Made by a program: the position numbers and the translations under genes
DNA from: Gnetum montanum
Lineage: Eukaryota; Plantae; Gnetophyta
Direction: 5' to 3'
Assembly (NCBI GenBank): GCA_015680685.1
Contig: MNCI01000412.1
Span: 87,498-151,497 of the forward strand
DNA: 64,000 nucleotides
Shown here: positions 3,204-62,770 of the stretch, piece by piece
Numbering within the stretch: the stretch's first letter is position 1
Layout: each line of letters begins with the position of its first letter
The notes under the pieces: generated by a model
Seen by the model: only the letters and a program-made list of their open reading frames with translations
Database searches by the model: none
Told to the model about the DNA's origin: nothing

Positions 3204-3204
3204 C

Positions 3205-20410: not shown

Positions 20411-20413
20411 ACA

Positions 20414-31300: not shown

Positions 31301-31940
31301 ATCTAGTCAAAATGGAGTCTCGTACGTGGTAGTTTACGCAGCAATTTTTGGTAGCATAAGAGGATTGTCTTGAAGATATTGCTTGTTTAAGCCTTGGAAG
31401 TTTGAACAATTCGTAGATATTGAATTTGGGATAGCTTTATTGTGAAGTGTTTACTTGTGTCATTTTACCTTGTTTAATTATTTAAGGTCTACACAAATCT
31501 ACTTTCTTTTCTTTTCTGCTTATTTCCATTGAATCTTGCTCTATTTCTAGTTTTCTTGTGAAACTATCTCATTCTCTGGGGAAAATTAGGAGTAGATTGC
31601 GGAGTTGTGCTCAAATGTTTTTGCAAAATTTTATTTGTTACAAGTAGGTATTATAAGGACCACGTAGGCTAGGCAGTTGAACAAAATAGGAAATTTTCAA
31701 GTATTCACAGTACTTGGCAAAGTTGGCTGAATCTCTTTAAAGTAAGTCATTTTTAGTTCACACACAACGCAATTGTTACATTTTACACAACCACACGCCG
31801 CAACAGCACACACACATACTCACATTAACTACTAATTTTATTTGGAGGTATCTGGACCTTGGTGTTGCCAGAGACTAGCAGGCAGCTAAATCTTGTTCGA
31901 GGACACTTGTTGGCGGTCACGTCCCAAATGGTCACCAACA
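28346..31940 (+). repeat. 3' LTR of element D (~3.6 kb)
   Basis: Begins TGTTGG after the PPT and ends CCAACA. Confidence 0.85.
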
Positions 31941-33739: not shown

Positions 33740-34439
33740 CCCACCCCTCCCGAATAATGGAAAATTTAGTATGGAAGTTGTAAGTTTTTCGGTGTTGGAT
33801 TTTCACAACACTTGCTATGAATTTTTAATCTAGAGCCAGCATTGAAAACCTATTGTGACCATTCCATATCTTGCTACAATATTTTCATAACAAGGTCTAT
33901 GTTGATGGTTTCAATAATCAAACCCCTTTCCCCACTGACGCCCTAGCCCCCACACACCAATGTTGGCTAGGAAGGTGTGAGATCTCCCAATCTCACCCGC
34001 ATTCTTTTTCCCTACTACACCCAATGTAGGTGCAGCTAGGAAGCCCAACATGGGTAAGGTTTAGCACCATGTACCATATTGGGTAAAAGGGTATACCTCC
34101 TTTGGCAAACCCCTTATTGTTTATAGTAAGTGACTTATTTTGATAATTTTTAATGACTTTTAACAATTTTTCATTTTTTCTTGTTGGAATTCATACTTTT
34201 GACCATACATTTTATAGCCTATATCCAATACTTTTAGCATTGTAATCATGTCTTTCTATTATTTGATCAAGTTACTTTTCACATTCACTGATAGTGGATG
34301 CAGAGAACAAGCCATGAGGATATATGACCCCAAGGATCCTACTATCATTGAGTGTAGGTAGTCTTTGAGGCTAAGGGGGTGAAGTCCTAAATTTTAATTA
34401 GAAATTAATATCACTACAATTACATTTGTGCTAAAATTC

Positions 34440-37113
34440 AGGCTAGCATGTTGATTCCACATGTGAAAGCAAAAGCCAAAAGGGATTTTGAGTTCATACA
34501 TCAAGATGAGAAGGAATACATACCTTTCCCATATGATCAAATTTTCCTCAAGAACACCTATACTTGCATCCTATCTTAGCTCATGGAGATGGATCAAGAG
34601 GATAAAAAGCACAAGTTGAAGAAGCAAGAGGAAGAGGAGGATGAGTTTTGGAAAGAATCGATGCCTAAAAAGCTCCTAGATAGGTTTTTCCAACAAACAA
34701 CCCCCATGGCCATAGAGCCTTCTTCTACCCCTTTTGTTTTCTCCATGGTTCAAATGCCATCATCCTCTACCCCCTCCTACTTGACCATGTGTGATCCCAC
34801 ACTAGTCATCATTGTGCACCAAATGCAATTAGTATCACAGTCAACCACATTTAACTTTTCCATGCCATTCACCATCCAATGTAGGTCAGTATGACCATTG
34901 TCAGTGGGTTAGTACCATCAACTCATTCATCTATCAAATGGGATCTACAATGGGGCCTCAAGTAGCCCAGGGATCATGTACCCATTTTTTTCTATTTGTG
35001 CCTCAAGTACTAGCACAAACCTCCTTTTCTCCATTTATCTTGTCAACTACCATTGTAACACAACCTCTCCCCTCTATCCCACAACCTATAGTGAGGCAAC
35101 AAGCCTTCCAAAAAATGCCACAACCCTTTGTTCAGACCTCACAACCTAGGGGAGCATCACAAGACCTAGATTAGGTCTTCTAGATGATCTAGGACTTGAT
35201 GGAGGAGTTGAATAGGCTTAACGCATTTACTTCTTAAAGATTCAAGATCATGGATTTTTACCAAGGTGATCCTATCAATCCTATGATCCCACCCTTGACA
35301 CTTCCTCTTGGTGTTTCTATCCCTCAATTTACAAAGTAGAATGGTAAGGGTAATTTCAATGCTCATCTTAGAAATTTTTGTTCAAAGTATCTATTATTAC
35401 AGGTTTAGCCACATACTGTTATGAGGATTTTTCCTATGTCTTGATTGGGAAAGTGCTTGAATGGTATTGCATCCTACCTAGAGCATCTATATCCTCTCTT
35501 GAGAACCTGATAGTCTAATTTGTTAATTGGTTCAAGTATAACTTGAAGCCTGATACTATGCTTGACCAAGTAATGAAGGTTAAGAAAGGATCCCCTCAAA
35601 CCAATGTAGAAGTTCATCCAATGATGGAATAATTTGCTAAATGAGATACCCGAGCCTTTAGATGAAACCAATATTTTGGAAATATTCAAGGGTGTAGTAA
35701 ATGATTTCATTAAGTCTAAGCTATATTACCTTGACTTGTGGTCATTCAGTCAAGCCTTCTCTCAGAAAAAAGCATAAAGGATGCTATGAAGGCTAGTCAT
35801 GACCTTGCCTATGTGGCATACAAAAATTAACACAACCAAAAGAAAGAGGAGAGAGGCAATTAGAACAACATGGTGGTGTCAACTATAACCAAAGAGGCTA
35901 GCACAACCAATCAAGGGCCAAAAACAAGTGCACCTAAGGCCCTTACTAACAACCAAGATAATCAACCATTAACCTTTAGGGCTGTTAGATTGACTACACC
36001 TAGGCTAAACTTTAAGTGGAAGGACCGTAGTAAGTACACTAGCTTACCCTTGAATCCTTAAGAACTATTAGATCAACTGTTGAAGAGTCAGTGCATCCAA
36101 TATAAATAAATGACTAAAGCTACTTGAAAGGAGCATGAGTAGCTACTTGAAAGGATCCTACTCAAGCAACAAAAGATGATCCTCAACTACCTAGGTATTT
36201 TAAGCTAGACCACTTTTTCCATTATCATCAATTTCCAAGTCATGACATTGACTTCTGCATTGCACTAAAGGATGACATACAAAAGATGATAGATATGAAA
36301 GATTTGATCTTAGATACATCCAATCCAATCCAGCTATAGAATCAAATGATGTAGGTGTAAGAGCATCCATTAAATGATAATAATAGCCCCTATGTTATAT
36401 CATTGTTCAACATTGATGATAATAGGAGGCCTACGAGGGAACCATTCATGATATAGATAACCCCTCATTATAAATAGGGCTTTTCAACTTCCACCAACTC
36501 AAGATCCCCATTTTTTGTAAGGATACTCCAGTGAGCATGCCCAAAGGAACCTTTTGTCATCAAGGTGCCCTAGTCAACTATAACCCAACTAGCTTAGACA
36601 ACCAAATGATGGCCTCCTATGGTGGCCAATGCTACAGCTTCTCCCTCATACACAACTACTAAGAATTAAAAAGCCTCAATCAAGCATAGGAAGAAGCCTA
36701 TGCAAAATTCCAACAATAACAATGACCAACAAGCTAAGCCATGTAAGGAAGTGGATCCATCAAAGCCCACTTCCAAATCCTTAGTACCCATAACTTCTAC
36801 AACCTAGCCTACTTCTACAAGAAAATCATGAGAGGAATGCAAGAGCTAAGAGAATAAGAAAGAGAAAAATCCACAATAACCCAAGGCTAAAGTACACATT
36901 TTTGGGTTCATGAAAGAAGTGAAGCAAAATTAGGACAACAAGCCTATAGCTAATGACAAAAACATCATAAGTATGATGAAGTAAGTTAGGTAGTCTCTCA
37001 ATTAGAGAAATACATGCTTGAGCCTCTATGACTTAATCCTTACTTTCATTGCATATCATGAAGTGCTAGTCAAAATGTTGAATTTAATTCCCATTAGCGA
37101 GATATCCCTATTA
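34440..37113 (+). pseudogene. gag: Element E: heavily decayed Tat/Ogre-like gag fragment paralogous to the gag of F
   Basis: MDFYQGDP..PPLTLPLGVSIPQFTK, GVVNDFIKSKLYYL, F.HYH..PSHDIDFCIALKDDIQKMID and LSLYDLILT..HE.LV.ML..IPISE are all colinear with 40490-42535. No LTR or PBS found upstream. Confidence 0.85.
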
Positions 37114-39091
37114 CATCTGGAATCTAGGGTTTCAGGCTCAAAATGCATGGTTTTTTCTGTATACACTTTGGTCATGCCATGGTCACGCTGCCCAACGTAA
37201 GACCATCGTGTGTACAGTGTGACCAACTTCTAGAGCCCCAAAACCAAGTCTAAATAGCCAATATTTGAGCACACGGACCCTCCATGAGCTTCACCAATGC
37301 CCCATGTAGCTCCCAACCTTCAAAACCTTGAAATTTAAGCTTAGAATCACATGTCTTGAGCCACTTTTTGTTGGTCATGCTGAGGTCATGCTACATAGCA
37401 TGACCAAATAAGAACAACTCAATACATGCACCTCCAGGTAGAGTTTTGATATGAATTCTACTCCCAAGCGCCAGGCAACAATTGTACATGTTCACAGGCT
37501 CCAAAAAAAATTTGGGCCTCAAAGATGCCACCCTCAATTAGTCACATTGAGGTCATGCTCCATAACATGACCACAGTGTGACGAAAAAAATAGGGAAAAT
37601 TAACAATTTTTAGGCATCATCTTCAACATTCGAGCAACCCCCAGGGATAGGTAGCACTTGTAGAGTTTTGTAGGCTTAAAAAACTCATAATTTGGGCCTA
37701 AAATATGGCATTTTTAGTTAGTCATGCTGAGGTCACGCTATAGTGTGACCAAACCAAACTAGCCCAAAACAGCAGCAAAATGCAGTCAAATTTAGCATCC
37801 AAGCCACCCTAGAGAGTAGGTAGTAGTTTAGCATAAACAAATAGGCATCAGCATCCAAAAATCAACTCAAAAAAGGGCATAAACACTTGGTCACGCTAAG
37901 GTCATGCTAGCCAGTGTGACCACAGTGTGAGCAACCAAAAGCATGCCAAACTAGCCTCCAAATCAACTCAAAATTGATGTGTAGAACCCTCTTGATATCA
38001 AGCATGCAGATCCACACCAAAAATGGATCTCATAGGTAAAAAATGGGCTCAAAATGCATCATAAAAATTGGACATGTTGATGGTCACACTGGCAAGTTGA
38101 CGCAGGTGTATGCACAGCATAAATGCTGGACGCCAGATGCTGGACACCAGGACACACCATAGACATGATAGAGCCAGATCCACGCACATTGTAGACCTTG
38201 GTGGAGCAAAAATAGCACATATCTGCAAATCTGGAGGCTAGAAATCCATATCCACTCTTGTACTTTAACATTCTTTGTACATCTTGCATTTTTCAGCGTA
38301 TCAAGCTCTTACACTATGGATTACACATGCTAGCATAAGAGATCTTGATCACGCTACACCCTCTACATTGTAAAATTCTGTGCACCTGGTTAAAATGTTC
38401 ACACCTATCACCCGATCAACATTTCCCTCATCCTACAACTATAGATCTTCCTCCAGATCCAAATCCTACACTCGAAAATCCTATAAATACCCTGTTTTCC
38501 ACTTAATCAAGGTTGGCAATTTTGGGCCATCGAGACCTATAAGGTTGGAAATTTTGGAGCAGGAAAACCAGCAACCCTAAACCCAGACTTAGTCACATTG
38601 AGCACTGTAGGGTAATCTTGGTCACACTACATACCTACAACTAGAAACCTACAATCCCCCAGCATCTATACATTGTTCACATTAGGGCTAAATGTCTGCC
38701 TTGCGATCAAACTGCAACTGTGTTCTGACCGGTGCACTTTTATTTGTAATCGTCCATTAATACATTACAATTTTTTCATCCATTTTTCTTTTTTTACACT
38801 ATTTACATTTGTTATAATTTTTGTTACCTTTGTTCACATTTTTTTTTTCATTTTACATCTTGTACGTTCGTTTATGTTTAAATTTGCATCTGTTTACATA
38901 TAACCCAGCACATCGCAACAACATATGCTAGGGGAAGTCCTTGTTTGATCTATGCGTAGACCATTTAAGGAACTCTACCTTCATTTATTTCTAGCTTGCC
39001 CTCATGCAAAGGTGGGGTCTTACTGTGTCTTCCATAGATCTCTCAGCATCTGTTTCATTCCAGCCTTGCACCAATGATTTCGGATAGTACA
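37114..39091 (+). repeat. 5' LTR of element F (lacks first ~180 bp)
   Basis: Colinear with 57086-59091; many GGTCAYGCT/AGYRTGACC inverted motifs; TATA cctataaata at ~38480. Confidence 0.92.
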
Positions 39092-39879
39092 GTAAATTAG
39101 TGCTCGAAGGTGGGCCAATTTCTATTATGTGTTTTTTGTTCACCATCCATACATTGCCCATAGCATCCTACATTCTTGTCCTCTACCCAGACACTGCTCA
39201 CAGCGTCCAACATCCTTCTCTTCCTTCTCAGACTCTATTCATAGCATCCTGCACTTAGTTTTCTCACTCAGATGCTACCCTCAGTGTCCAGATGCCCTTC
39301 TAACTTGCTAAATACATGCTACTTAACTCACAGTGTCCAACACTTAGGCCTTAGCTTCTAGACGTTGTTCCTTAGTCCCAGACACTACATCCAGCATCCA
39401 CACGTTGTACCCTAGTTCCAAATGCTACACTTTATATCAACTACATTCTACATTTTAGTTTCTTAGCCACATGCTATGTTCATCACCCTCAGCATCCATA
39501 CACTGTCCATGGTTAACCTCAGCATGCACACACTATATTTTTCAATGTAGACATGCTACATGCTGGACTCACCTCCCAAATGCTGATACATTGCACTTCA
39601 CACTTAGCGTCCATATGCTGTACGTCATACATTAGCCATGTTGCAATCTTTCATACACTGTACTCCCTTGTACACTCCTTGTTTTTTCTCATACATTGCT
39701 TGTCTTTACTATATACTACTCATTTTTATCATACAGTACATTTTCTCCCATATGCTATCCTCATACACTCAAAATGGACTCCACACACACCAACACAGCC
39801 ACCTTTTGTGTCTCCGACTTCGGTACCATAGTCTTAGGTCCCATCACTACTACTGAGTCCATAGTAGCCCTTGGCAAGA

Positions 39880-42800
39880 TGAACCCTTAGGGGCCACCTC
39901 ACTGGTCACTGAGACTACAAGGTAGAAACCCCACGTTCACCATCCTAACGCCCGAACAATATAACTTTATTTATGTTAAAATCCAAGCTAACCTGGACGT
40001 TGACCAAACTGAACTAGAAGCAAAGAGAAACTATGAGCTAATTCACAAAGGAGGCCATAACTTCATCCCTTTATCATATGACATAATTCCCCTCTCTGAA
40101 TCCCACCATGAACTCATATCCCAACTCCTCATGGCAAGGAACCAAACCTCACATCAACCTACCATAAAGCCTCAAAACAGAGATGAGGAAGATGATTTCG
40201 CGGCTCAATCTAAACATGGGGAGATGCAACAATATCAACCTACTCATTATAGCATACCACCTGCTACAATTTCATCCATGAATGTCACTCAAGTACAACC
40301 ATCAACAATGCAACAGTCATCATTGCCACCAACTGTACAGTAGTCTAACTTGCATAACACTCAAACTAACCAACCTATTGCTCCACCGAGTGCCCAAGAA
40401 TAGGACAAAGCCAAAAAGATGATGCAAGAGCTCACTAATGAGGTAAAGTGCCTCAAAACTGCTAACACTGAAGAGATTAAAGTATTGGACTTTTACCAAG
40501 ATGATCCAAGTAGTTCATCAGTGCCACCTTTAACTTTACCCAAGGGAGTTTCATTGCCTCAATTAACCAAATATAATGGGGAAGGAGATCCCAACACCCA
40601 CTTGGTAACATTTAGATTAGAATGTCTATTGCTTCAAGCTTGGCCCCACACAATCCTACACATGTTCACCATGTCTTTAACCGAATGAGACCTAGACTAG
40701 TACAAAGCCTTACCCCATAACTCTATATCCTCTCTAGAGGATCTATTACACTAGTTTGTTACCAAGTTTAAGTACAACCTGAAGCCCGAAGTGACCTTAG
40801 ACAGTTTGATCCAGGTAAAGCAAGCACCACTAGAACCTGTGCAAAAGTTCATCCAGAGATGGAGTGCTGCACTTAATGAACTTCACAAGCCAATCCCAGA
40901 AAGATACCTAATTACGATTCTTAAAGGGGTCATGAATGACTTCATTAAGTCAAGGCTCTACTATCTAAACACTCACACCTTGAGTCAAGATTTTTTATAG
41001 ATAAAGAACATAGAGGAGGTAGCCCAAAATATTCATAACCCTGCTTATTTAGCCTATAAAATTCAACACACGAAGAAAGACAATGACAAGGCCAAAGCAA
41101 CAGCAGTAGTAGTAGTGGAGACGGATCAACCTAGCAACACGGGACAGAAAGGGAAAAAACCTACTATTCTTGTTAACTATGAGAGAACCACTCCTACACC
41201 CACACCTGAACCATCCTTTGCGCAAACTACCAACACGGGTCATGCACATACATTTGAGAGAAAAGAGCCTACTCAATATACACCATTGCCTATGAAGCCT
41301 TCGCAACTATTAGATCAACTTTTAAAGGCTAGGGCCATCAAAGATAAGCAGTTGTCTCCCACGGTAGCCCAAAGACATGACTAATATTGTGAATTAGTCA
41401 GAAACCTAAGCTTGGCAACACCGAATGTGCCTCCAGTTCTGAGAGGCTTTAGACTAGATAGATTTTGTGAGTACCATCAACGAAACAGGAACAGAAATGA
41501 TTATTGTTTCACCCTGAAATAAGACATACAATGTATGATTGATAGGGGTGAAATAACCTTCAACAAAAATAACCCTGTAAAACCACAAAATCAATCTATG
41601 GACATGTATAAGGATCCCCTTAACACCAAGGAGGCTCCTTATGTGATCAACACAATATGTTTCGGCAATGAATAGGAAATACCCAGAAAACCTTTCATGA
41701 TTTGTGTTCCTACAGCATCAACACCATCTCCCCAACCCTCATTTCCAACACATACACTCTCCACACCTCGAAAACCATTCGTCATCCGGGTACCTCCTAC
41801 AGCGGCAACAATGAATGTACGCCCACAAACCAAACCTGCTCCCCTTGTGATCTGGGTACCGCCTGCTATTGCAACCATAGACATACAACCCCAAACCGAA
41901 GCAACTCCATTTTTCATCAGGGTGCCTAAGCAACCAGATGTTTAAACTCTAATAGCTCAAATGCCAAATCGCCCCACTCCATTCGTAATTCGGGTGCCTA
42001 AACACCCCAACACTCAACCACCAATAGTTCCATCACAAACCCACCCTATTCAATTTTCCATTCGGAGCTCGAAGCAACCAGATGTTCAAACCCTGATGGT
42101 TCCCTCACATCCTCCAAGAGAACACCTCATAGAAAGGTTGACCAAGGAATGTTTGGAAAGAGAACATCAAGGTCATAAGTTGGGATCCTCAAAACCCACT
42201 CCATTAAATGCTACACCCGTGGCTCTGACAACTGATGAACCAAGCACAAGTAACCAAGTTGAAAAATCAGGAATGCCCGAGGAGCCAAACCCAATGGTTA
42301 CAGTTGACCATGCAACAACCCTTCCTCAAGGAATATAACTATTGGGTCCAATGGACCAAGTATCAACCAACAAGAACATACCAAATAGCAAAGACTTGGC
42401 TAGTGCCCTAACCCAGGTTACATAGGCCCTCAAACAAAAGAACACTTCATTGAGCTTGTATGACTTAATGATGACCTCTCAAGTACACAGTGAAGGCCTA
42501 GTACGTATGTTAACATCAATCCCTATTAGTGAAGACTTACCTGCAACTGAATCATCCATTCATGAAGTAATTTCTCCACATCAAAGATCAAGGTCCACAT
42601 TACTAAACTTCCACATAGATAACATTAAAAAGGATAAACAAATAGGAAAATTCACCACCGCACCTATGTTCATAACCATACAATTCAACCAATTTAAAAT
42701 ACATAGAGTACATGTTGATGACGGGGTAGCCACAAACGTAGTACCATTCCCCATCATCAAACAATTAGTGCTCATAGAGTAGATAAAACCAACATCCACA

Positions 42801-43400
42801 ACATTCCTAAAATCATTCAGGAGATCATGTGTCACAGTAAAAGGAACACTCACTTTGGACTTCATAGCACAGGACCAATTCCCCACGTCAACCAAGTTTG
42901 TTGTCGTAGATGAGATGCTAGGATTTAACTTGATTTTGGGATGACCTTGGTTAGCCTAATTAAGAGTGGTATCCTCACCCATCCTTCAAGAGATTCACTT
43001 ACCTTACAAAGGTGGTGAAATCATTATACACAGTGATGCGGCTACATCCAACATCTCTTCACATGTAGGAACAAACCAAGGCTCAGAGGTTGAATTTGAT
43101 GAATCTAAACAAGATGACACTACCCCTAATTTTAAAAAAGATGACACCACCGATGAGCCTAAATAATACAATGCACTAGATAAAACCCAAAGTGATGATC
43201 AACCTTCCAACTGTAATCCCCCAGAAGACATGGAAACATTACAAAATGGGGAAACATTAGAACATGATGACGTAGGAGCTGTTCCCCCAAATGTCTCATG
43301 GTCAGAATTACCATTTGACATAACTAGTGAAGGAGACACTAAATATAAGATCAAATCGACATGCCCTACCCTTAATGTCAAGCTTCAAAAAATAAAGAAG
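39880..43400 (+). pseudogene. gag: gag plus aspartic protease of element F
   Basis: LPQLTKYNGEGDPNTHL..FTMSL; knuckle remnant FCEYH....C..LK.DIQ.MID at ~41460; protease HRVHVDDGVATNVVP at ~42700 and NLILG*PWL at ~42930. Confidence 0.9.
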
Positions 43401-43919
43401 CTACTAAACCATTAAATTACCACACATCCGAAATGATGTTAAACTACCACACATCAAAAATGACATGGTCAGAAACAACCGGTTTTTCTAAATTCACCGA
43501 AATAGCTACAGTCTCCTCCACCACTTTAACAAAGACACGATAGTCCACCATGACTTTAAATTGATACCCATGGCCCGAAACAGCCTTAAACTAGAGCACA
43601 GTACATTGTCATTTCACCGAAACTTCGCTACATCATTATTGTTTACATTTTGCATGTTACAAGTTTCATTTATTTTATTTTTACCAGACATGGCTCCAAC
43701 GTACAATTACATTCACAAATAAAAAATGGAAGAAAAGAGAGAAAACAACATTTACACAATACAAAGTGATAGCATATCACACCATCATCATGTTACATCG
43801 GTCTTCACACATTCTAGAAAAACAAAACAACAATCCAAAAAACTAATTCCCAAAAAACAAAACAACAAGAAAAAAACTAAAAACAAAATGACAACACTAA
43901 CAAGCCAAATCAGGCACTA

Positions 43920-46900
43920 GCATTAGGAGGGGGCTGGTCACCAAAGTCCTTTGTGTCATCAACTCCTATCCCACTGGGCCCAGCCTCATCATCACGATGC
44001 CCCTATCACAAAAAGATAACAGAACAATAAAATAAGTAAGCACACATAAATAGATTAAAAGAACAAAAAACACCAAGGAAGATGATGATAACTAAAGGCA
44101 ATAAAATGATATTAGACTAAAACACTCATAGGTGAGGAAGGCCTGAGGTTAGCTTCCAAGTACCATAAAATCTCCTCTTTCGACATGCACGCCTAATCTT
44201 TCTCAAGTCCGAGGTCGATGTTGGCCAAGACTTTGCCCTTGTCAACTTCATACCAGGAAGGATGCTTGAGAGAAAACATGCTTGTTGAAGCTTCACTAGA
44301 GGCAGTGGTAATGGACCTCTTAGGAGACCCTTCCACCTCTGTACACAACAAACTTCTCATACGAAGAACATAAGCCTAACCCCTCCACGAACATCTCCAA
44401 CTGGCAACGTTCAACCAATTCCTCTTTTAACCACTTTTTGTATTGGTGCTTGTGGTCTTTCTGATCTAGGCCCCATTTACATACCTTGGATGCAAAGGAC
44501 TTCTAGTCATGGCACTTACTATTCAACAAATCCATCTAGGCCCGCTATTTAGCCAAATCCCAAATTACCTACACTTTGCTATTCAAGCTCGCCCAATAAC
44601 GTGCATAGGTGATTTTGGATGTCTACCAGGTACTATCAATGGCCAATCTAGCAAAGGTGAAATCATAATGGACCTGCAAGTTGTTCCTTTCCTCTATTAA
44701 TTTTGCCAAATTTCCTTTCAATGATTAAATTTCAAGCCATAACTATTCAATTGAGCGCTTGCAGGTCTAGAGAGACTTGGCATTTGGAATAACACAACCT
44801 GAAACTACATCATAAATACTTCTTGGAATCTGCTCAACATATTTTGGAAATTTTGGAAGACCATCAATATGGGTAGCCTTGGAAAGACTCCATTAGAGTT
44901 TTGCACCTACAAGTACAAACATTACATATATGAGCCAACAAGAAAACTCCAAGAGATGCATAAATACAATGAAACCAGGTGCTTAGTATAAAGTACACAC
45001 CTAATTCAGGATGAGCCTATTGCATACGAGCAACAACATCGTTGAAAATGATGGTAACAAAGTCCACCTTATTGGGAATCTCATGCCATACCCTCAATGG
45101 ATTGGCAGATGTTGAATCTATATGAGAAGGCACCTCAACCGGGGCCTCTAACTCCAACCCATCTGCCTGAGATACATGTGCTTCAGGTACTTCGGCATCA
45201 ATGTCTGATGTTAAGAAGATCCATGATAATCAAAAGAATATACAAAACTAAAAAAGTATGGAATGCAAATCAAGCAAACAAAACTTACCAAGAGGCTACT
45301 TGTTGGTCAGCTCAGGCAGATCATCAAGGTGTAGAGATCCATCAAAGAAACCATTAAAGACACCTTTCTCCTCACTCGAATGCTTAAGGGCATCTAAAGC
45401 ATCACTTCCATGGAGCTCGTTGCACCCTCTTCCCGTAAGAGGGGAATACCCTCAACTGCTTATTTTCTAGCTTCCTCCTCTTCATCACACCCAATGATAA
45501 CCGTTTCAAGTTCACCCATCGGAGCTAATTCTTCCCTTTCCCTCTCGGGGGTACACTCTGTTAACACTAACAAATATAAAGTTAGCATGACATAATAGAT
45601 ATGCATATTTAAGTAAGAAAATAAATTCAAAAGGCAATAAAAAAGCACTTAAAGCAAAAAAAAAAAAAAAAGGGAAACTTACCTGCTCCTACCATGGTAA
45701 ATCGAATCTTCTTCACCCTTGGAGGTCTCACCTTCATAGTAGGTGCATTCGAACACTTAGCTCTTTTCACCTTAGCCTTGGCTTTCTTGAAGATCTCCTG
45801 GATCAAGAACCTAGTTCTCCTAATAGCTATGTGTAGTATGGGTGGTTCCAACACCAAGCTATCACATGAGTGGTGGGAACAACTGGCTACACTTCCTGTG
45901 GTAATGGATACTGATTCGTCGATACCTTCAGGTGGATCTTGGGATCTCGTGGTGTTAAATAAATGATAGATCCAAGGGCAAGACAACTGTGAGAGATCCC
46001 TTAACACATAATGATCATCTCCATAGAAGACTAAGAACTTGGCAAACCTATGGAGATATCCTGGGAAAAATGCAAAAGTGAAGTGGAACTGCGCATTCAC
46101 GTTAGAGCATAATCTGATAAACTCCCCATGGAAGGCCAAAACCAGAAACTGTGCCTAGTTATAATGCATACCAGTCTCTAGGATCGAGCACATGATATGT
46201 GCAGGCTCTACCCCAAGAGTTCTCACTTGAGAAAGAGACTTGGGAAATGCACATGCTCTATAAAATGGTTACAAAAAATTCACTTCCATCAATTTTTTGC
46301 ATAGGGAAGCCCTTGGAACCCTGTGGCATGTCCAACCACTTGTCAAGGTCCTTAATCACTTGGCCTTTCCTATTTTCCTTGTCCACTATCACTTTGACAT
46401 CATCTACTGGTACCCCAAAGAGATCTGAAAAGAATTCAGCAATCAGATGGAATGCAACCTTAACCCCCCACACCCGCATGCTAAAATAAGTAACATCATC
46501 ATTGAAAGAGTCAATGATGGTAACCATCTTAGTCACGGGAACGATAGAAGTCAAGGCACCGAACAGATCCATTAGACCAGCATCTGTAAGGCAAGTGATG
46601 ATGTGTTGAGGTGCTTTTCAACGCAACCACCATTGCGAATCTTCTGTCTCCCCATACTTCATGAAAAGGGTACCCTTAGTATGCCCAGACATAATGGTGA
46701 CCCCACTAGGAGTAATATCCATTGTAAAAACATGTTACACAAAAGATCAATATCATGATAAACAATGGGGTAGCAAAGATAAAAATGGAACTTACAACAC
46801 AATCACTTACCATTAGCAAATCGATAAGGCACACTCAGCACTGAATTAACCGCTTGAGGAAAAGTGGGCCCATTGTGAGACCAATCTTCATGTAGCCACC

Positions 46901-47460
46901 CACGTATTTCACAACATTCAAAGGCCATGGAAATTTTCTTATGATAATGGACAATAGCACCCTTGGTTTGATCCAACACGGCACCACGAAGAGTGGGGTC
47001 CACCATAAAAGCCTCTAAGGTTCTACGTGTTAAGTCAAGTCCATCATCATTCCTGTGCATTCTGTGGTCATCAAAATCGGGCCTGCCAAGAAAAAGATAA
47101 TCAAACATAAACAATGGTATAACACCAAAGAAAAAAAAATAAAGATAAATCAAAAAAATTCTTAACCTTCTACCCTATACACTATTCTAGGTGGATTCTA
47201 GAATAATGTATGTACACAGAAAGCTAGGAAAGGGATGTTACTGCTATTGTAGTGGCTACAAAGTGGTAACTCCCAAACATGAGTCAGAGGATGGGTAGAT
47301 CGAGGACCTTCTATAGGACCAACATCAACTTTAAATAATCCCTCATCCACATCAACGATGAAGGCCAATATGTCATGGGATGAGCCAAGTAGTATGGTCT
47401 CAACAACACTATCAGCCAACTGTTCACTTAAATAAGACTAGATGACCATGCTAAAACCCT
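43920..47460 (-). pseudogene. Antisense multi-exon extra gene inside element F (plant mobile domain / transposon accessory-like)
   Basis: Minus-strand ORF blocks 47198-47419, 46803-47153, 46258-46572, 45627-46139 and 45460-45648, separated by short T-rich introns with GT(A/T)AG donors (~47166, 46810, 45682) and YAG acceptors (~47082, 45558, 44907, 44004). The segment CLTDAGLMDLF..IIDSF..AFHLIAEFFSDLFGVPVD..YN*AQF resembles PMD/transposon accessory proteins; the family call is tentative. Confidence 0.6.
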
Positions 47461-47999
47461 GTAGGATAAACAATAGAAATTCACTAGAGCCTAGACGAAA
47501 CCATAACCCTTGTGATCCGATCTTCATGTCATGACGAGGTGCTTTGGGCTCTTAGAGGCCAAAAAAAGATAACACACCCATGAGTTCCACCACAAAAACA
47601 AAGGGCTTAAGTCCCGTTCACAGAGCCAGAACCTTAAGTAAGTAACTTAAAACGCAAAAAATATAAACTAAACAAAAAAAATAAAAAAATAAGTAAATAA
47701 ACCTAATGAGTAAATAACATTCAATGCACACCCAAGCCCACCCCTTGGGACAAGAACTCTAGTATTTGTTTGGTGCATCTAACGCTCAATGGGAAACATT
47801 GGAATCCACTAGGTAACACCAATCTTAAAAGGACAACATTTACTAAAAATCACGATAATAGTTCAAGTTACCAAAAATCATCACATCCACAAGTGGGAAG
47901 TATCACATATTTTATGCTATTTTAAATCTTTCAGCTCACACCACACATAAAAGGAACTCACGCTACGCATGGTAAATCAATTGTGTTACAACCGGAGAT

Positions 48000-48900
48000 G
48001 GCAGTAACTCACAATAAAGGTAACTCACGTTGCCAGGATAGCCAACTCATGCAACAATGAGGGTTACTCACACTACAGAGGGTTACTCACGCTACAGAAG
48101 AAACTTGTAACAGTGCAACTGCAACTGAAAACAATAATTTACACTGCACTTGGCAATTACCCATGCTACAGAATAAACTGGTAACACTGGAGCTACAACT
48201 TAAAATAACTATTTACATTGTACTGGGCAGTTACCCATGCTGCAGAATAAACTGGTAATGCTACAACTACAACTGAAAGCAACTATTTACTTTGTACTTG
48301 GAAATTACTCACGCTGTAGTAGAAACTAATAACGTTGTAGCTGCAACTGAAGACAACAATTTATGCTGTAAGGAAGTCACTAACGCTACCAACAATAGTT
48401 CACCATGCCAAAGTAAAGCCTCACGCTGCTAAGCAAAGGCATTACTGACACTGAGTAAGGCTCATAGGTATTCACGCTATAACAAGGACAGTTACTCACG
48501 CTGCCCTTGTCCAATGCCTTGCACCACAATTGATTCACTTACACTGACAATTAAATACAGTAACTCATGATGATAAAGAGGGCAAACATTAAGGAGTAAT
48601 CACACTACAAATTAGTAATACATGAGCTCACGCTGTAGTAGGAATCAATCACCCACATCTTGGTTTGGAGGCCAGTAAATCACGCCATGGTCTAAAAAGC
48701 CCTGAAACAAGCTATATTGCAAACAGCCCTGCAACCAATGCTACACAGCCCTGCAACTAACGCTAGAGATGCATCCCTGCAACTAACACTATGCAACCCT
48801 GAAACTAATGCTATGCAGCCTTGCAACTAACGCTAGAGATGAAGCCCTACAACTAATGCTAGAGATGTAGCCCTGCAATTTATGCCATAATCAACAGTAA
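48000..48900. repeat. Degenerate tandem arrays (~68 bp unit at ~48085-48390; 21-26 bp unit at ~48700-48880)
   Basis: Repeats of actcacgctacag..aaactggtaac..caactgaaa..attta, and of agccctgcaactaacgcta. Confidence 0.85.
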
Positions 48901-49994
48901 TTTAAAACACTCGTTCTCCCAACCAAAATGTAGCCAAAAATACCCAAAGCGTGGCAACCTTTGCAACTCATGCTGCATGTGGGCATGCCCTATGTTGCTC
49001 ATGCTAGCTGAAAACCAACAACAAGAATAAAAATAGTAGTCCCAAATCCAGAATCAAAGCAATAGACCCTAAAAACATAACCGCAACAAAAATGCACTAA
49101 AACGTGATTGTGTTAGGGCCACTCACGTTGCAATCTTAGAGGAAATCACACTACAATTATGAATTAAAATAGAAAACAAACACCCTGGAACATAGGGAGG
49201 AAACACAATCACTCTCAACACAACTAGAAATCGCCCACAAACACCAAAAATCTATGGCTCTCATAACTCACGCTGCCACTCATTGACGTTACACTACACC
49301 AAAAAAACAAGAAAGGAGGGAAGGAATAAACCTGCTTAGGATTCCAACCCATGAAGAAACCTTAGGTTGTGAAAGGCGTTGGATTAGTTCCTCACTCTCC
49401 TCCAAAAATGCCAAGTTGCCTACTTCTTCCCCTTTTCCCATTCCTGCTTTTCCTTGCCCTTCATCTTGCTCATGCCATGCATTCCAAGTCACTCATGCTG
49501 CATCGTTTTCCAATAGCTCACACTATGCACTAGTCCTCTAAACTTACACTATGTCCATTCACTTATGCTTGCACTACATTTGGGGGCCATTTTATCCCAT
49601 TTCGCAATTACATGGTGTCCTTTCCTCTCTCCTCTTATTTATTTTTACTTTATTCTTGTGCTCCCAAAGTAGCTACTTCTTTTCATTCCTCTGATGCATA
49701 TTTATTAAGTTTTGCAAAGTAACCCATGCATTTGGACAAAAAAGAAAAATCCACAAAAAATCCAACAATCACAAAAGAAATCATAATACCTAAATATACT
49801 TGGAACATGACTGGCAGACAGCCTGGTATGGCTTTAAACTGCCACACATGGCCCAGTAAGGCCTAAAACTGCCATGCGTTCATGTATGACAATAAACTAC
49901 TCATTACATGCCTTAGTTACATTTAGACATAAAATTAATTACATACCAATAGCAACTAAACCTTCACTAACATTGCTCCCTGTTCTAATTGGCA

Positions 49995-51640
49995 GGAGTG
50001 ACCACATGGATAACAAGAACCTCTTGACAACACTCTCTTTCAATGGACCACATGGAGCCATTAAAAGAGAGATTAATCTAGAGTCCATTGATCTAGACTC
50101 ATTAGCTCATGATAATTTCATAGCGTCAAAAAAAGAGACACTTGATTGCTTTAAGGGAATGAAGAAAACTCTGGATGTAGAGGCCGATAACATCACCAAA
50201 GATCCCCTCACCGAAGTCCCCATTACTATGTTTAATGACGAAGTTAAAATATTAAAACTAAGTACTCTATTAAATCCACAACTGGCTAGTGACATAGCTC
50301 AAGTGCTGAAAGACAACATGAAAGCATTCACTTGGTCCTATACTGATATGCCAAGACTAGACCCTCGAATAGTCCAACATAACATCATCCTTGATCCAAA
50401 ACTCAGACTAGTGAAACAAAAGGCACGAAAGTTTAAGCCTGAGGTAGTATTGGCAGTTCGTAATGAAATCATGAAGCTTTACCAAGCTAGTTTCATCTGA
50501 GCTATTGACTATGCCGATTGGGTGTTCAACATGGTTGTAGTCCCAAAAAGAAATGGAAACATTCGCCTATGCATGGACTTTCATGACCTCAACATAGCAA
50601 CCATAAAAGATGACTTCCCGCTGCCTAGTATCGATCAACTTGTTGATTCAACTGCTGGGCATGCATTGTTGTCCTTTATGGAAAGATTCTTGGGATACAA
50701 CCAGATTAGGATCAACCCAGAACATCAACTCAAGACAACCTTCATGACACCATGGGGAACATTCTGTTATACAATGATTCCATTCAGTCTAAAAAATGCT
50801 GGTGCTACATATCAGTGAGCGATGACATACATCTTTAGTGATTATATGCTTAGTTCGCTCAATGATTATGTAGATGACATCGCAATCAAGTCAAAAAAAA
50901 CTGAGCAACACATCAATGATTTAGATTTGGTACTTAAATGTTGTCTCAAGTATGAGCTTAAACTTAACCCAAAGAAATGTATCTTTGGGATCAAAATAGG
51001 CAAAATGGTCAGGTTCATAGTATCTGAAACAGGGATATGTGTAGATCCCGATAAAGTTAGAGCAATAAAAAATTTGAGGCCACCTAGAAACCTTATCAAA
51101 CTATGCAGTCTACAAGGAAAATTACAATTTATTAGGTGCTTCATTAAAAAATTGACAAACAAGATAAAACCCATGTAGCATTTATTGTGCAAAAATGCCC
51201 ACTTTCAATGGACTCAATAGTGCTAGGAAGCCTTTGAGAACATCAAAACGAAGCTATCTAAACTACCGATAGTTCATCCCCCGCAAAGTGATAAAACCTT
51301 TTACATCTACCTCACCACATTTGACTCATCTATTATGTCCATGCTTTACCAAAAATGAGAAGATGGATTTGAGATCCCTGTTTACTATTTAAGCCATGCC
51401 TTAGTGGCCCATGAATAGAGATACAACGACATAGAGAGGTCATGTCTAGCCCTTATCTTTTCCTTGAAAAAGTGGTGACATTATCTCTTCTACAACCAAG
51501 TCAACATTATTTGTAAAGAAAATGTGCTCAGAGCTATTACCAACAACATCTATGAATCAAGCAGGATAGCTAGATGGAAGGCGATGATTGCGGAGTTTGA
51601 CCTACGCTACATAGCTCAATATTCCACAAATGTCAAGAAA
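49995..51640 (+). pseudogene. pol: Reverse transcriptase plus RNase H of element F
   Basis: AFTWSYTDMP.LDP.IV.H, VVVPKRNGNIRLCMDFHDLN, KDDFPLPSIDQLVD, GYNQIR..TPWG, LKNAGATYQ, YVDD (50867), KLNPKKC; RH IPVYYLSHAL..E.RY..IE..CLAL. Confidence 0.97.
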
Positions 51641-51756
51641 TAGTCAATAAAATGACCACCTCACTAATGCAAGACCATGAAATAACCAACCCTAAGTTCC
51701 CTGATGAGAATGTGAACACCATAGAAACCATGCCTGCCAACTATGATGCAATCTTA

Positions 51757-52171
51757 TAATTTGATGGAGCATCAACCTCCCAAGGAGGAAGTACTACAGC
51801 CATCATAATGTATCCCTCTAGAGAAATTTGAACCTCTACCTATTGATTAAAATTCCCTTGTACCAACAATGTGGCAGAGTACGAAGGTCTTCTTAGAGGT
51901 CTCATGGTAGCACTAGCTTCAAGAATCACATGGCTTGTAGTTCAAGGTGACTCACAACTAGTAATCAATCAAGTCATGGATGTTTTCGGATGCAAAGCTT
52001 CACATTTACAATCATACTGTGACTTAACTAAACACTTGCTGAAACAATTAACAAAAATAGACATGCAACATGTTCCCAGAAACAAAAATACCATCGCAGA
52101 TGCACTCGCAATACTATCCTTAAATGTGACACCCGACATGTTTCATGCATTTCCTAGTTCCATAATGAACT
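51757..52171 (+). pseudogene. Additional archaeal-type RNase H (aRH) of element F
   Basis: FDGAS..GG, FPCTNNVAEYEGLL.GL, VQGDSQLVINQV, HVPRNKN..ADALA; diagnostic of the Tat lineage. Confidence 0.93.
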
Positions 52172-53904
52172 TGAAACACCATGAAATTTTAGCTCAACAC
52201 TTTGAAACAAGAATAATTCAAAACCTCTCAAGTCCTAAGAAGAAAACTCTAGACTACGGCATGGAACTCAAGCCAGCTTGCTCATGCTATAAAGCTAGCT
52301 TTCTCCTAGCGGGAGTGACTCAAAACAACCTCAAAATAATGTTAAAATGGCCTGATTTTGAAGGTACAAGTCATCCTAAAGGTCAGTCCACCAACGATTA
52401 CCCTAGGTTCCTAGCCCTCAAAATCCTAATTTTGGGCTCAAAAATACACTTTTTACATTGCTTATGCCTAGCTTATGCCCAAGTCACACTAGGATCATGC
52501 TGGAGCATGAGCTCAGCATGAACAAATAGAAACTAGTCCAAGCAAGAAGTCCCAAGCACACTCTTAGCATCAACTTAACTCCCAAGGATAGGCAATAGTT
52601 TTACTTGTCAACAAACTCCAAGAAAATCAAAGTTCAGGTGTGAAACATAGCATTTTGGCTTGCTCACGCCTTGGTCATGCCTAGCTCATGCTAAGATCAA
52701 GCCCAAGTCATGCTGACAGTGTGATCCTAGTGTGAGTTACCAAAATGATTCAAATCGAGCACAAACAGGCTCAAAATTAGCATCCAGGTGGACCCCAAGG
52801 GTAGGCAATAGTTACACTTGAAATACAAGTCTCAAAAATCAAAATTTGATGTAAAATGAACCATCCCACCTTACTCATGCCTAGCTCACACGCAGGTCAC
52901 GCTGAGCACTATTCATCAGCGTGAGTATTATTCATCAGCATGAGTACTATTCATGCCTAGAAAACAGTACTCCAAACGCACACTAAGGACACACCAGGAC
53001 CAAATCAAATCACAGTGGGAGCCCTGGTGAAGCAGAGACACCTCAAACAGCCACCAAACCACTCAAATCAACATCCTGCAGTAGACGATTCAAAGGACCA
53101 TGAAGTTTCAAGTGAGGTGGAGTCAATCCCTCTTGGAATTCATTGTAAATTTGAATTGTAAGCTTTACCATGTGTGAGCTTGTCAAGCTCTTACGCTACT
53201 TCTATGGGTGTAAGCTAGCTTTCGATTGTAAGATATAGTGCACCTGGTCTAGAATGTAGTTGCCCACGTATACCAGTCGTGCGATCCGTTTTTCCCTCAT
53301 CTCGCAGCCATCGATCCCATTCAATCTAACTCCCAAGCCTAGCAAAAATGTATAAATACCCTGTTCATTGACATAAATGGGGTTGGCAAAAATTCCAAGA
53401 AAAGAGACAAGCAAATCCTAAGCCTGGACACACATGATTCACAGTGCCTGTAAACACCTTGCATTAGAGCTTAATGTTCAACTTGCAATGCAACTATGTT
53501 TTGACCAGTGCACATCTTGTTTATTCTTACAACATTGTTCATTATTTGCCATCCATTTTCCTATTCTAATTCATTGTTTGCATTGTTCCATTTCATTTGC
53601 ATACATTCTATTTGCGTTTATGTTTCATTATGTTTCATTACATTCTGTTACGTTTCTGCACGTTCTATTACGTTTTGTTACATTACATTATTTTCTCTGT
53701 TTTACATTTGTGACGATAACCCCAACATAGGCAATAGCGTATGCTTGAGGAAGTCCTTGGTTGATCTGCGTGCAGACCATCCCAGGCACTCTGCCTTTTT
53801 TTTCCAGATTTCCCTTGCACAAAGGCAAGGTCGTCTGTATCTCTCCTGAGATCTTTTAGTATTTGTTTTCCTCCAGCATTACATTGACAATTTTAGATAG
53901 TACA
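52172..53904 (+). mobile_element. Solo LTR G (related to the F LTR family) inserted between aRH and integrase
   Basis: Starts tgaaacacc..aaattttagctcaacacttt and ends gatagtaca like the F LTR; shares gaagtccttg.ttgatctgc.tg.agaccat; TSD GAACT/GAATT; no PBS or PPT. Confidence 0.88.
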
Positions 53905-55218
53905 GAATTGTGCCAAACCCATAACCAACACTCTCAACAACATACCTATAGCATCTATTAGTAGCACACATGTAGTGGAATGGTATCATCACATAAAAGA
54001 GTACCTTCTACATGGTGAACCACCACTACATCTAACAAATGCTCAAAAGGACGCAATGTAAAAACGTTCTCGATAATATGCGCTAATAGGAGAAACATTA
54101 TGTCATAGATCCTATGAAGGAATTTTGTTAGTGTGCTTTAGTAACATTGACAGTCACATGATCATGGAGCAAGTTCATGAAATACTTTGTAAAGGGCACA
54201 TAGCACCTAAGGCAATGGCAATGAAAATCAAACGTTTACGCTATTATTGGCCACACATGGAGCATGATTGTTTCTCCAAGTTCAAAATGTGCAACATCTG
54301 TCAAAAGCATGGTAATTTAATACATGTGCCACCTAATGAGTTTCATACAGCACAAATCACATGGCCTTTCCAAAAATGGGGGTTAGACATCATTGGATCA
54401 ATAACTCCCCCATCTTCACCAAGACATGGCTTCATCATCACCACAACTGAATACTTCACAAAATGGGTAGAAGTTATCGCCCTTAGGAATACCACATCCA
54501 AACAAGTGTGCAATTTCATACTCAAAAATATTGTAACCCATTTTGGCATCCCAATGACCATAATCACCAATAATGGTCCACAGTTCAATAGTGCCAAAAC
54601 CAAAAACTTCTGTGAAAGCCTAGGCATCAAACACTCATTCTCATCATCGTACTACCCATAAAGCAATGGTCAAGTAGAGTCCATGAATAAAATTTTCATC
54701 ATGGTGCTCAAGAAAATGCTTCATTAGAGCAAAAGAAGATGGCATCAAGAACTAGTTTACGTGCTATGGACATATCGAATGACACATCGAACATCCATAG
54801 GTAAAATTCCCTATAGTCTTGTTTATGGATCAGAAGTTGTTTTACCTTTGGAGTTGTAGGTACCCTCATTGCAGATCACTCTCTCTAGGCTCCTCGATGA
54901 AGGTCAGAATGATGAATTGTGTGTTGTTGACCTTGACTCGATGGAGGAGGAACGTACAGGCACACCCGATCAAATTGAGTGGTACCAAAAGAAACAACGA
55001 TGGTGACATCGACATGATGTACACAAGCATCCGATCAAGGAAGGTGATCTAGTCCTCAAGATGGTCCGTGAACACTCAGATAAATTCTTAGCCAACTGGG
55101 AAGGGCCTTACTTGGTCATTAAGCATACGACAATGAGGCATTCAAACTAGTTGATATGAATGACAATGAGCTTGCTAATCCAACAAATCACATGTACCTC
55201 AAACATTACTACATCTAA
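53905..55218 (+). pseudogene. pol: Integrase of element F
   Basis: HE..C.GH..YYWP..C..CQ zinc finger; WPFQKWGLDIIG; YFTKWVE; ITNNGPQF; SNGQVESMNK; NWEGPY module. Confidence 0.97.
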
Positions 55219-55234
55219 AAAACTTAAGGTATGC

Positions 55235-55536
55235 ACTCATCCTAGCATCATGATAGTAAACTAATAATGCAGACTTGTCCTGGCATCATGATGGTAAACT
55301 GATACCACAAACTCATCCTAGCATCATAACAGTAAACTGATACCGTAGACTCGTCTTGGCATCATGATAGTAAACTAATACCGCAGACTCATCCTGGCAT
55401 CATGATGGTAAACTGATACCATAGACTCGTCCTGGCATCATGATGGTAAACTGATACCACAGATGCATCTTGACATCATGACAATAAAATGATATCACAT
55501 ATTTATCCTGGCATTATGATAACTAACACCATAGAG
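55235..55536 (+). repeat. 38 bp tandem array in the 3' UTR of element F (~8 copies)
   Basis: Unit actcatcctggcatcatgatggtaaactgataccryag; more degenerate taaact units continue to ~55740. Confidence 0.95.
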
Positions 55537-56906
55537 CTCCATATGGTATGACATTAAACTACCACATTTGTGTCTACCAGAGTCTGCTAAGACTATAAAC
55601 TAGCTCACCTCTTCATAGTCTACCATGACTATAAACTAACACTGCACCGTCCGCTACGATGCTAAACTAGCAACGTCCAAAAAGTTATGACATAAAACTA
55701 ATCCATGACAATCCACTAAGACTATAAATTGGCAACATCATCACTAGCCCATTGATCTATTGCTACAATCAATGACTTGGCTTCATCTCAAGCCTGCTGC
55801 ATGATTCACCTCATGGACTCTGATGACACTGATGCTACTCGTTTTGTTCTCCTAAAGTTTAACACGATGCCTCCATCTCATTAGTTGTAATCAAGTTTAA
55901 AGTGTTTTAGACTAATACACTTGTAGTTTTCTTGTCCTCTTGGAGTTTTGTTTATAGGATGATGCTCTGAGGTGTTTACAGACAGATGCACTTCATCACA
56001 GTGACAAGGTACCACATTGTTCTTGACACATGCAACGGGGTTAATCAATCCACTCATGAGTACATTCCTAGTTTCCGATGCATCCCTTATTCTCCAACAT
56101 GTTCTCCCTATCCTACTCAATTACACCTCCTGGATACATTCCATTTACCACAAAACTTGAACCACACTATTGTATACTATGACTCTCCAAGCAGTTGCAA
56201 CCTACAACACAACATAGCACATGATACAACTACAAGCACACAAGCACGAGTACAATACTGAAAAGATACAATTTTGTCAAAAAAATGGGGGGGGGGAGAT
56301 AAAAAAAACAAAAAAAAATCAAAGAGAAAAATACATCATAAGGCCATTGGCTCTTCCCATACAAGGCCCAGGTAGGAAGGTAGTTGTCTTGGAACAAAAC
56401 ACTCATGTCTCAAACAATCATGTCACATAACATCATCACGTGGCTTTGGCTATTTGACAACGGGATCCTTTTGACACTCCCAAGTGTCTTGTTTCTCAAA
56501 ATAATGCACCACCTCATCATGTGGCTTTGGCTATTAACAACAGGTTCTCTTAAACATGATCCAAGAGTCTCGTTCCTCCAAAGGATGCACCTCCCATGCC
56601 TTGGTCCCAAGTCTGCTAGATACTGGCTATCAACAAAGACCAACATGACTTGTTCACAAGAGCATTCCTCTCCCACAATTAAACAAATCAATCCTTTGAT
56701 CAATTCCTAATCCCACAGTTACAACCTGCTTCCCATGCATATCCAAACTTCATTTCACAATCCAATGTACTTTTGAACATGATGCGATGGCATCCAGCCA
56801 AGTGCCTGATGGACAATGCTTGATGCCAAGTTGCTTATGGTGTTTTGTACTTCTTTGTCAATGCGCCTCGGGTGGATTTCTCTAGGTGTCAACAAAGAGG
56901 GGCCAA

Positions 56907-62394: not shown

Positions 62395-62770
62395 TAATTT
62401 AGATAAACACATAAGAGCTTTCTACAGAAGCTAATTTCAGCACTGACTTAGGGAGTTTTATCTAAATTTGTAAAGAAATTACAATTATTAATAATGCAAG
62501 GTTATGATAAAATTACTTAGGATAATTTAGAAAAACTCCTTAGAGCTTTTTACAAAGGCTAATTTCACCTCTAACTAGACATTCTACCTAAATTTGCTAA
62601 CTCCAATATTCCAAAACGTTTTTTCTTTGAAAGGTTGTGATAGTGCCTTTTAATGGAATTTATTAAGCTTATTAGATAAACACCTTAGATTATTTTGAAA
62701 GGCTAATTTCACCTCTAACTAGATGTTTTCCTAACCTATTAAGAAATTCTAATTTCTCACAATGTTTTTT
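62395..62770. repeat. Three degenerate copies of a ~130-145 bp unit
   Basis: ttagataaacac..agag..gctaatttca..ctaactag at ~62399, 62528 and 62672. Confidence 0.7.

Follow-up and report, generated by a model that had tools for sequence, protein, structure and literature searches.

The function of the extra genes carried by the Tat, Ogre and Retand long terminal repeat (LTR) retrotransposons is an open question in the accessible parts of the relevant reports (PMC7264820, PMC11963269). In Ogre, a Tat member of the non-chromovirus OTA branch of Ty3/gypsy, as far as the available text of PMC6317226 describes it, the gap between the protease (PR) and reverse transcriptase (RT) domains averages 274 bp and is an intron spliced in only a subset of transcripts, the additional RNase H (aRH) domain lies between the RNase H domain (RH) and integrase (INT), as it also does in Retand, and an antisense open reading frame (ORF), mostly of the PMD type (431 matches), is found 3' of INT. 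The Retand antisense genes (Grande gene23 and the RIRE2 and TRP28 ORFs) are flanked by tandem arrays, lie between pol and the 3' LTR and are described, in the portions of text available, without a multi-intron structure (PMC7264820, PMC11963269); for Grande, the available text reports the gene's own promoter and a nuclear product (PMC7264820). In the gymnosperm Tat lineage III (TatIII), aRH follows INT and an antisense extra ORF (eORF) sits at the 3' end, according to the accessible sections of PMC4408406 and PMC6317226. Here, we describe an element of this kind, termed F, in a 64,000-nt stretch of Gnetum montanum DNA (assembly GCA_015680685.1, contig MNCI01000412.1, positions 87,498 to 151,497 of the forward strand; hereafter the window, within which all positions are counted), the PR-RT gap of which holds a predicted multi-intron gene on the minus strand.

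F resembles Ogre in placing aRH between RH and INT, but its gap measures 6.58 kb from the gag-PR stop (43413-43415) to the acceptor boundary at 49996, that is, 24 times the Ogre average, and holds a gene where Ogre has a plain intron; this gene has seven introns and no detected PMD domain, in contrast to the 3'-located, predominantly PMD-type Ogre ORF (the Ogre features as given in the accessible text of PMC6317226). An antisense ORF of at least 250 codons between INT and the 3' LTR, as in Ogre/Retand, was not found in F. With the Retand genes F shares an antisense accessory gene and flanking tandem arrays, but neither their position nor a TRP28 (Transposase_28) match. With TatIII it shares an antisense eORF, and its nearest named RT matches include Cryptomeria proteins and Gb_11641 (52-54% identity over the core), whereas the order of aRH and INT and the 3' place of the TatIII eORF separate the two. 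F is also similar to the Mutator-like VANDAL DNA transposons, where, in the part of PMC5735166 available, an element-encoded accessory protein (VANC), belonging to an anti-silencing system that is defined by sequence-specific binding and loss of methylation, is combined with short motifs in non-coding parts and tandem arrays; this likeness is confined to layout and motif enrichment. What is new relative to the Tat/Ogre antisense-accessory design is the position, the seven introns and a candidate pseudo-phosphatase domain. In the literature searched, which left most subscription papers outside, neither a gene between PR and RT nor a retrotransposon with a NIF domain was described, and a NIF-like domain is absent from the eORF domain list in the accessible part of the PMC6317226 survey.

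Results

A multi-intron antisense gene between PR and RT

The gene lies on the minus strand at 43910-47632 and comprises seven coding exons (about 1040 codons; 3120 nt of exon in total). A composition scan of 43905-47750 that is blind to splice sites returned seven T-rich segments, all of them on the minus strand, and these coincide with introns of 70, 84, 89, 125, 84, 94 and 127 nt (T fraction 0.55 vs. 0.30 in exons), five of which are bounded by GT..AG. In this copy the acceptor of intron 46810-46722 and the donor of intron 44129-44003 are non-canonical, and these two sites were placed partly by frame. The composition test was used instead of a strict splice-site scan, the thresholds of which were too tight and which recovered one intron. 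Across 17 exon tiles, the best frame contained 17 stops vs. 25.6 ± 3.7 in shuffled sequence (1.4% of 500 shuffles were as low), with 6 vs. 17.9 in the RT-RH region that served as the positive control. The T-rich introns and the low stop density thus bear out the minus-strand, intron-containing gene that an earlier, sequence-only reading had placed at 43920-47460, and extend it to 47632 plus a further intron at 47702-47633.

Following the minus strand, the likely promoter lies in the upstream region (47751-49995), which carries 74-nt and 22/26-nt arrays, 11 plus-strand TCAYGCT sites and a possible minus-strand donor at 49331; the tandem arrays announced by the sequence-only reading are indeed present in the spacer. 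The extra 70-nt, T-rich GT..AG intron (47633-47702) comes next, followed by the first recognisable coding exon (47167-47632), which paralogue alignment and a NIF profile mark as NIF/FCP1-like without the catalytic motif, and a stop-free exon 2 of 272 nt (46811-47082) that aligns to exon 2 of the paralogue. Exon 3 (45683-46721; frameshifted) encodes a central domain without a family match and a Lys/Arg-rich patch (16 of 47 residues). Exons 4 (45289-45557; frameshifted) and 5 (45001-45204) are acidic, exon 6 (44130-44906) has a heptad pattern that by a simple heptad count is likely a coiled coil, and the last exon (43910-44002) carries an acidic tail and the stop, its junction being compatible with one stop. 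A start codon was not found in the gene.

A distant paralogue lies outside F, on the plus strand at 62787-63368 (exon 62787-63229, a 79-nt GT..AG intron and the start of exon 2), with its continuation past an assembly break, on the minus strand of 63370-63907. A tblastn search that compared the spacer with the remainder of the window returned it at 26% identity over 148 aa (62796-63230, E 1e-10). The first exons of the two genes align with a score of 149 vs. 27.6 ± 4.6 and the second exons (269 nt in the paralogue, 272 nt in F, both ending in phase 1) with 63 vs. 22.2 ± 4.0. The 79-nt intron interrupts the same codon as the first coding intron of F, in the phase that exon 2 of F requires, and two intron positions are common to both genes. 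Because these positions are shared at such divergence, it is very unlikely that the gene is an artefact.

Around the paralogue, a 153-nt perfect inverted duplicate (63216-63368 and 63848-64000) flanks a single N at 63369, and the last 631 bases are an inverted piece, most likely produced by an assembly join error. The DNA upstream of it (59092-62786) comprises 180-nt repeats with palindromic cores (59238-59888) and long T-rich DNA, with a possible minus-strand polypurine tract near 60582-60593; this segment may be the LTR of a neighbouring element, with no partner in the window.

The spacer in sister copies and the TCAYGCT motif

For comparison with other copies, two DNA runs and two RNA runs were aligned to 42400-43830, the spacer part of which is the first 415 nt. 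The aligned DNA contigs (5377 from run X1 and 5998 from run X7, which bears another species label) were mostly less than 95% alike and hence come from other copies. They covered 30 of the 30 bins, with 3% (X1) and 2% (X7) running into unlike sequence, and variant rows within the spacer were supported by 11-97 (X1) and 13-94 (X7) contigs. Among the contigs in the variant rows at 43406 and 43417, there are some that continue for 33-46 letters to their end, so that the gag-PR stop is crossed by part of them. The summed depth in X1, which is not a copy number, was 766-2188 over the linker, on a par with the 1171-2065 over 43456-43695, where one bin stood at 9068. Loose ends listed at the spacer edge were further copies of a 27-nt tandem repeat (43412-43463) that overlaps the gag-PR stop and varies in copy number among sister copies, and none of those listed led to RT.

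The motif TCAYGCT occurs 11 times in the upstream spacer of the gene vs. 0.3 expected (shuffle maximum of 2), 10 times in the 5' LTR and 12 times in the 3' LTR of F, and not once in gag-PR, RT-aRH or the 3' region. The continuity of sister contigs over the PR side, together with the motif common to spacer and LTRs, suggests that the spacer is likely family-borne, i.e., a fixed part of a high-copy Tat/Ogre-like family. Words of the gene itself were present at 9-34% in nine DNA runs with five species labels and in no RNA run; these values were not counted as evidence.

Minus-strand RNA over PR

RNA run X11, of which 2% was read, gave 114 aligned reads. In six of these, 42652 is preceded by a T-run found neither in the window nor in the nearby DNA loose ends that were listed, which points to a minus-strand RNA that is polyadenylated and ends in PR. 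Reads in the minus-strand direction reached a depth of 10-20 over PR and filled 11 of the 12 bins from 43264 to 43830, and eight reads in the opposite direction clustered at 43552-43599, just past the gag-PR stop.

The antisense protein

Exons 1 and 2 looked NIF/FCP1-like by eye, and the N-terminus was compared with a NIF profile built from 16 of 21 strong bacterial PF03031 matches. When 642 six-frame pieces of the window were ranked by this profile, the paralogue came first (12.0 bits, E 0.004) and exon 1 of F second (7.6 bits, E 0.087), the next locus reaching 4.1 bits. Profile-profile alignment by hhalign gave a probability of 78-83% over 56 columns and a score of 39.9 vs. 13.6 ± 2.9 (maximum of 26.9 in 100 column shuffles). 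The match spans 56 columns in F and about 120 positions in the paralogue, in register from the first strand, and neither protein has an Asp at the positions aligned to the catalytic DxDx(T/V). On moderate support, the N-terminus can be said to resemble a NIF/FCP1 phosphatase without its catalytic motif; unlike in NIF/FCP1 (PF03031), DxDxT is absent from both the F gene and the paralogue, and about 800 residues without an assigned family, among them the basic patch, the acidic exons and the heptad pattern, are joined to the domain.

PMD (PF10536) and Transposase_32, both among the candidates named by the sequence-only reading, had been our initial guess by eye. Home-built profiles (12 PMD and two Transposase_32 (PF20167) fragments) stayed at the shuffle level, although these profiles were shallow and the query a decayed single copy, and the exon pieces had no Pfam match to PMD, Transposase_32 or Transposase_28; this guess was left without support, the N-terminus favouring NIF/FCP1. 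A repeat protein that was the single phmmer match of exon 3a among 1.84 billion representatives (E 4e-4) was judged spurious. Relatives of the protein were found neither in metagenome, viral and phage collections, 24 RT loci, PDB sequences, NCBIfam and PHROGs nor by a word search that used longer proteins only, and Atlas returned no usable match (scores ≤ 0.78). The two predicted folds had mean pLDDT values of 36.5 and 36.8 and were unusable; the second reached a best Z of 4.8 and had no Foldseek match at E ≤ 0.001. As a separate observation, plant-type Tat RT was found in 22 loci of prokaryote assemblies (L003-L024), mostly on short contigs and in some cases with PMD/Transposase_32 fragments in the same assembly; these Tat sequences are likely plant contamination.

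Host element F

By its sequence, F is an old, 22-kb Tat-type Ty3/gypsy element with an Ogre-like domain order. The 5' LTR (37114-39091), which lacks the first ~200 bp relative to the 3' LTR (56907-59091), is 83% identical to it (Kimura two-parameter distance of 0.183 over 1975 columns). The decayed gag-PR frame, including a linker, spans 39800-43415 (start approximate) and closes with the TAA at 43413-43415, in agreement with the end near 43400 given by the sequence-only reading. Its gag part matches Retrotrans_gag (Pfam; E 1.6e-4), and the PR core (~42660-43050; alignment score of 65 with P0106 vs. 29.5 ± 4.3 when shuffled) precedes the linker of ~120 aa. The decayed RT, RH and aRH domains (49996-52171) match RVT_1 and RVT_3, aRH being recognised by RVT_3 (E 1.2e-18) at 51691-52190, between RH and INT and, as the Tat clade requires, within a Ty3/gypsy pol, and the decayed integrase (53905-55220) matches rve and Integrase_H2C2, so that the Pfam order is gag, RT, aRH, INT. 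The 3' region (55221-56906) contains a 38-nt TAAACT array and a polypurine tract, and no extra long ORF was found in these 1.7 kb (longest stop-free frame of 108 aa), although decay could hide a short one. All of these features are on the plus strand. There were 824 RT homologues at E ≤ 1e-30, the closest with 52-55% core identity. In a tree built from 121 sequences, without labelled references, F fell close to proteins of Cryptomeria, Gb_11641 and Victoria, at a support of only 0.32.

This copy is dead, with stops, frameshifts and a nested solo LTR. The latter, on the plus strand at 52172-53904 between aRH and INT, belongs to a related family (TG..CA ends; target-site letters matching at four of five positions). 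It shares its LTR end and TCAYGCT (nine sites) with F; the related family accordingly uses the same motif. As to the tRNA-Arg primer-binding site and the 5-bp target-site duplication that mark Ogre, there is no TGG after the 5' LTR, and a target-site duplication is unreadable because the start of the 5' LTR is deleted. Directly left of the truncated LTR lies a decayed second gag (34400-37113; 68% identity to the gag of F over 251 nt), and the difference between the two flanks of F implies a deletion. The F LTRs also contain ~180-nt periodic repeats with self-complementary cores (37360-37950 and 57334-57950).

Elsewhere in the window, a younger element at 23412-31940 has 2.7-kb direct repeats that are 92% identical around an interior of ~3.1 kb, which includes an N gap (27337-27851), and is possibly non-autonomous. 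Three nested pairs of direct repeats within 3204-20412 (3204/19428, 5429/18394 and 7807/15680; 79-89% identical) are likely stacked LTR elements.

Edges of the spacer and the route to pol

RT-RH forms a single frame from 49997, directly preceded on the plus strand by a branch-point-like CACTAAC (49965-49971) and a 3' splice acceptor (49965-49995 in all), the AG of which (49994-49995) scores highest among the 21 plus-strand AGs in 49700-50100; the 3' splice signal before RT described by the sequence-only reading is therefore present. The upstream donor that it had suggested at ~49311 is not, as there is no plus-strand GT at 49300-49340 and the nearby donor (49331) is on the minus strand. The sole frame-compatible plus-strand donor found near the end of PR is at 43301; its score of 1.3 does not rank among the 25 best of the region. 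The RT frame is open from 49838 and contains in-frame ATGs at 49874, 49886 and 50006, and a plus-strand donor at 49826 (score of 3.4) would give a 170-nt intron.

The spacer edges have no terminal inverted repeat, as the sequence-only reading had also found, and share a 43-nt direct repeat (74%). A 13-mer, chosen after being seen, occurs at both edges and in the 3' region (four occurrences vs. 0.35 expected). The shorter TAAACT(A/G), which the sequence-only reading had noted at both edges and in the 3' array, is enriched in the 3' region (TAAACTR, 10 vs. 0.4) but not window-wide (36 vs. 29.5 ± 5.8). There was no Rfam match in 37000-64000 and no tRNA gene, and the spacer showed nothing that resembles the G-patch of P0106 (scores of 24-38, with no control). 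L003 and L004, which are distantly related Tat loci, have PR no more than ~1.5 kb from RT, and a PR-like stretch was part of the same predicted protein as RT in seven of the 120 retrieved proteins.

Discussion

Given the anatomy of the locus, the exon-intron pattern, the two shared intron positions, the PR-to-spacer junction in sister copies and the polyadenylated minus-strand RNA, we consider it probable that the spacer contains a seven-exon antisense gene, likely fixed in a high-copy Tat/Ogre-like family and serving as an accessory regulator, with pol likely reached by splicing into 49996. For that last step taken by itself, splicing to 49996 as in Ogre appears about evenly balanced against its alternatives. 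Of the spliced accessory gene inside a pol intron that the sequence-only reading had proposed, the spliced antisense gene and its family-borne look on the PR side have stood; the spacer as an intron is less certain, the donor at 43301 being weak and RT having its own ATGs.

Splicing and reverse transcription, as established, provide the basis for how such introns would be inherited. Antisense introns would be invisible to the spliceosome on plus-strand RNA and would be copied into each new insertion, and the spacer would survive only when unspliced plus-strand RNA is packaged. The analogy with an engineered retrotransposition reporter made by the sequence-only reading is inverted, as the reporter intron is in sense to the element and is removed, according to the accessible text of PMC12786077. 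The gene would likely have its own promoter in 47750-49500, and the cassette may be the usual 3' antisense one moved between PR and RT, as suggested by the 13-mer at both edges and in the 3' region and by the empty 3' slot.

The product may regulate the activity of the element itself. Our tentative proposal is a nuclear, trans-acting activator, comprising a dead NIF/FCP1-like domain, the basic patch, acidic stretches and a coiled coil, that would bind TCAYGCT in the LTRs and in its own upstream region and keep the element transcribed, as VANC does; this function is favoured by analogy to VANC and to Grande gene23, as described in the accessible parts of PMC5735166 and PMC7264820. The complete picture, that is, a giant PR-RT intron with an ancient seven-intron antisense gene, the pseudo-CTD (C-terminal domain)-phosphatase fusion of which binds the LTR motif and keeps the element transcribed in a VANC-like self-activation, is speculative and, taken as a whole, rather unlikely.

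Several observations weigh against the explanation we favour. Regarding the gene model, four of the six exon junctions (ties counted) are in the most open frame on both sides, and the canonical GT of intron 47166-47083 is shifted by one base from the open frame that follows downstream. Regarding the family, the sister comparison is limited to the first 415 nt of the spacer, on the PR side, depth drops to 114-640 in the last three bins, and none of the contigs listed spans 42400-43830; further, TCAYGCT was picked by eye, and two of its 11 upstream sites are in one array. The X11 reads, which come from sister copies, are few, with 103 of the 114 less than 90% alike, and their coverage has a gap at 43120-43263; run X14 gave 20 reads, none in the spacer, and no junction reads for the introns were seen, the aligned RNA stretch containing no predicted intron. 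For the domain, the reversed NIF profile reached 5.3 bits vs. 7.6 for F, the global mode of hhalign gave a probability of 19%, and Pfam returned no NIF match for the protein, which scored below the curated cut-off. Finally, no strong plus-strand donor was found near the end of PR.

Alternatively, the gene may be family-borne without the spacer being an intron. Two transcription units would then provide gag-PR and pol, the latter being read from its own ATG on a separate transcript that begins at an internal promoter or with an LTR leader. The three in-frame ATGs and the frame open from 49838 fit this possibility, as do the LTR-type motifs upstream, the short 170-nt intron that donor 49826 would give and the eight opposite-direction reads at 43552-43599. 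However, eight reads are few, the RT boundary is exactly where the branch point and acceptor lie, the weak donor 43301 being in frame with them, and Ogre splices its PR-RT gap; we thus view a separate transcript as possible but on the doubtful side. It differs from the explanation we favour in the pol step only and otherwise overlaps with it. The antisense unit might also act mainly as RNA, its long 3' end overlapping PR and dampening gag-pol or feeding small RNAs, with the protein secondary. The polyadenylated minus-strand RNA does end inside PR, and regulation by double-stranded RNA has been raised for antisense ORFs (in the available part of PMC7264820), but the ~1040 codons, the low stop density and the protein-level conservation with the paralogue indicate selection on the protein, and we regard this account as quite improbable.

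Multi-intron genes are typical of DNA transposons, and the gene could have come into the gap of this copy, or of a sub-lineage, with another intron-bearing element, either a DNA transposon whose termini are not clear or a host gene that was captured, and would then have no role for F. The paralogue outside F, a sister comparison confined to the first 415 nt of the spacer and the proximity of PR and RT in L003 and L004 are consistent with such an origin, which we nevertheless consider unlikely: there is no terminal inverted repeat, contigs of sister copies with two species labels extend past the linker into the spacer, the upstream region of the gene carries the LTR motif, and the antisense ORF usual at the 3' end is missing from F, as would fit a cassette that has moved. 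Even less likely, F might be a recombinant of an element bearing gag-PR plus the accessory gene with an RT-INT module, joined by template switching at TAAACT-containing repeats and subsequently amplified or not. The 13-mer at both edges and in the 3' region, the 43-nt, 74% direct repeat between the edges and a left edge that resembles a 3' region (stop, array, end of the antisense gene) point in this direction, and PR-side continuity in sisters is equally predicted, whereas the splice acceptor where RT begins and the match between the LTRs of the two ends do not; an origin of this kind does not conflict with the explanation favoured here.

Under that explanation, F would be a case of introns persisting in a retroelement through antisense orientation. 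With a dead CTD-phosphatase-like fold as the candidate domain and TCAYGCT as the candidate target motif, the F family offers two directly testable leads. If true, the proposed mechanism would represent a VANC-like self-activation system in an LTR element, and one that is invisible to ORF-based surveys.

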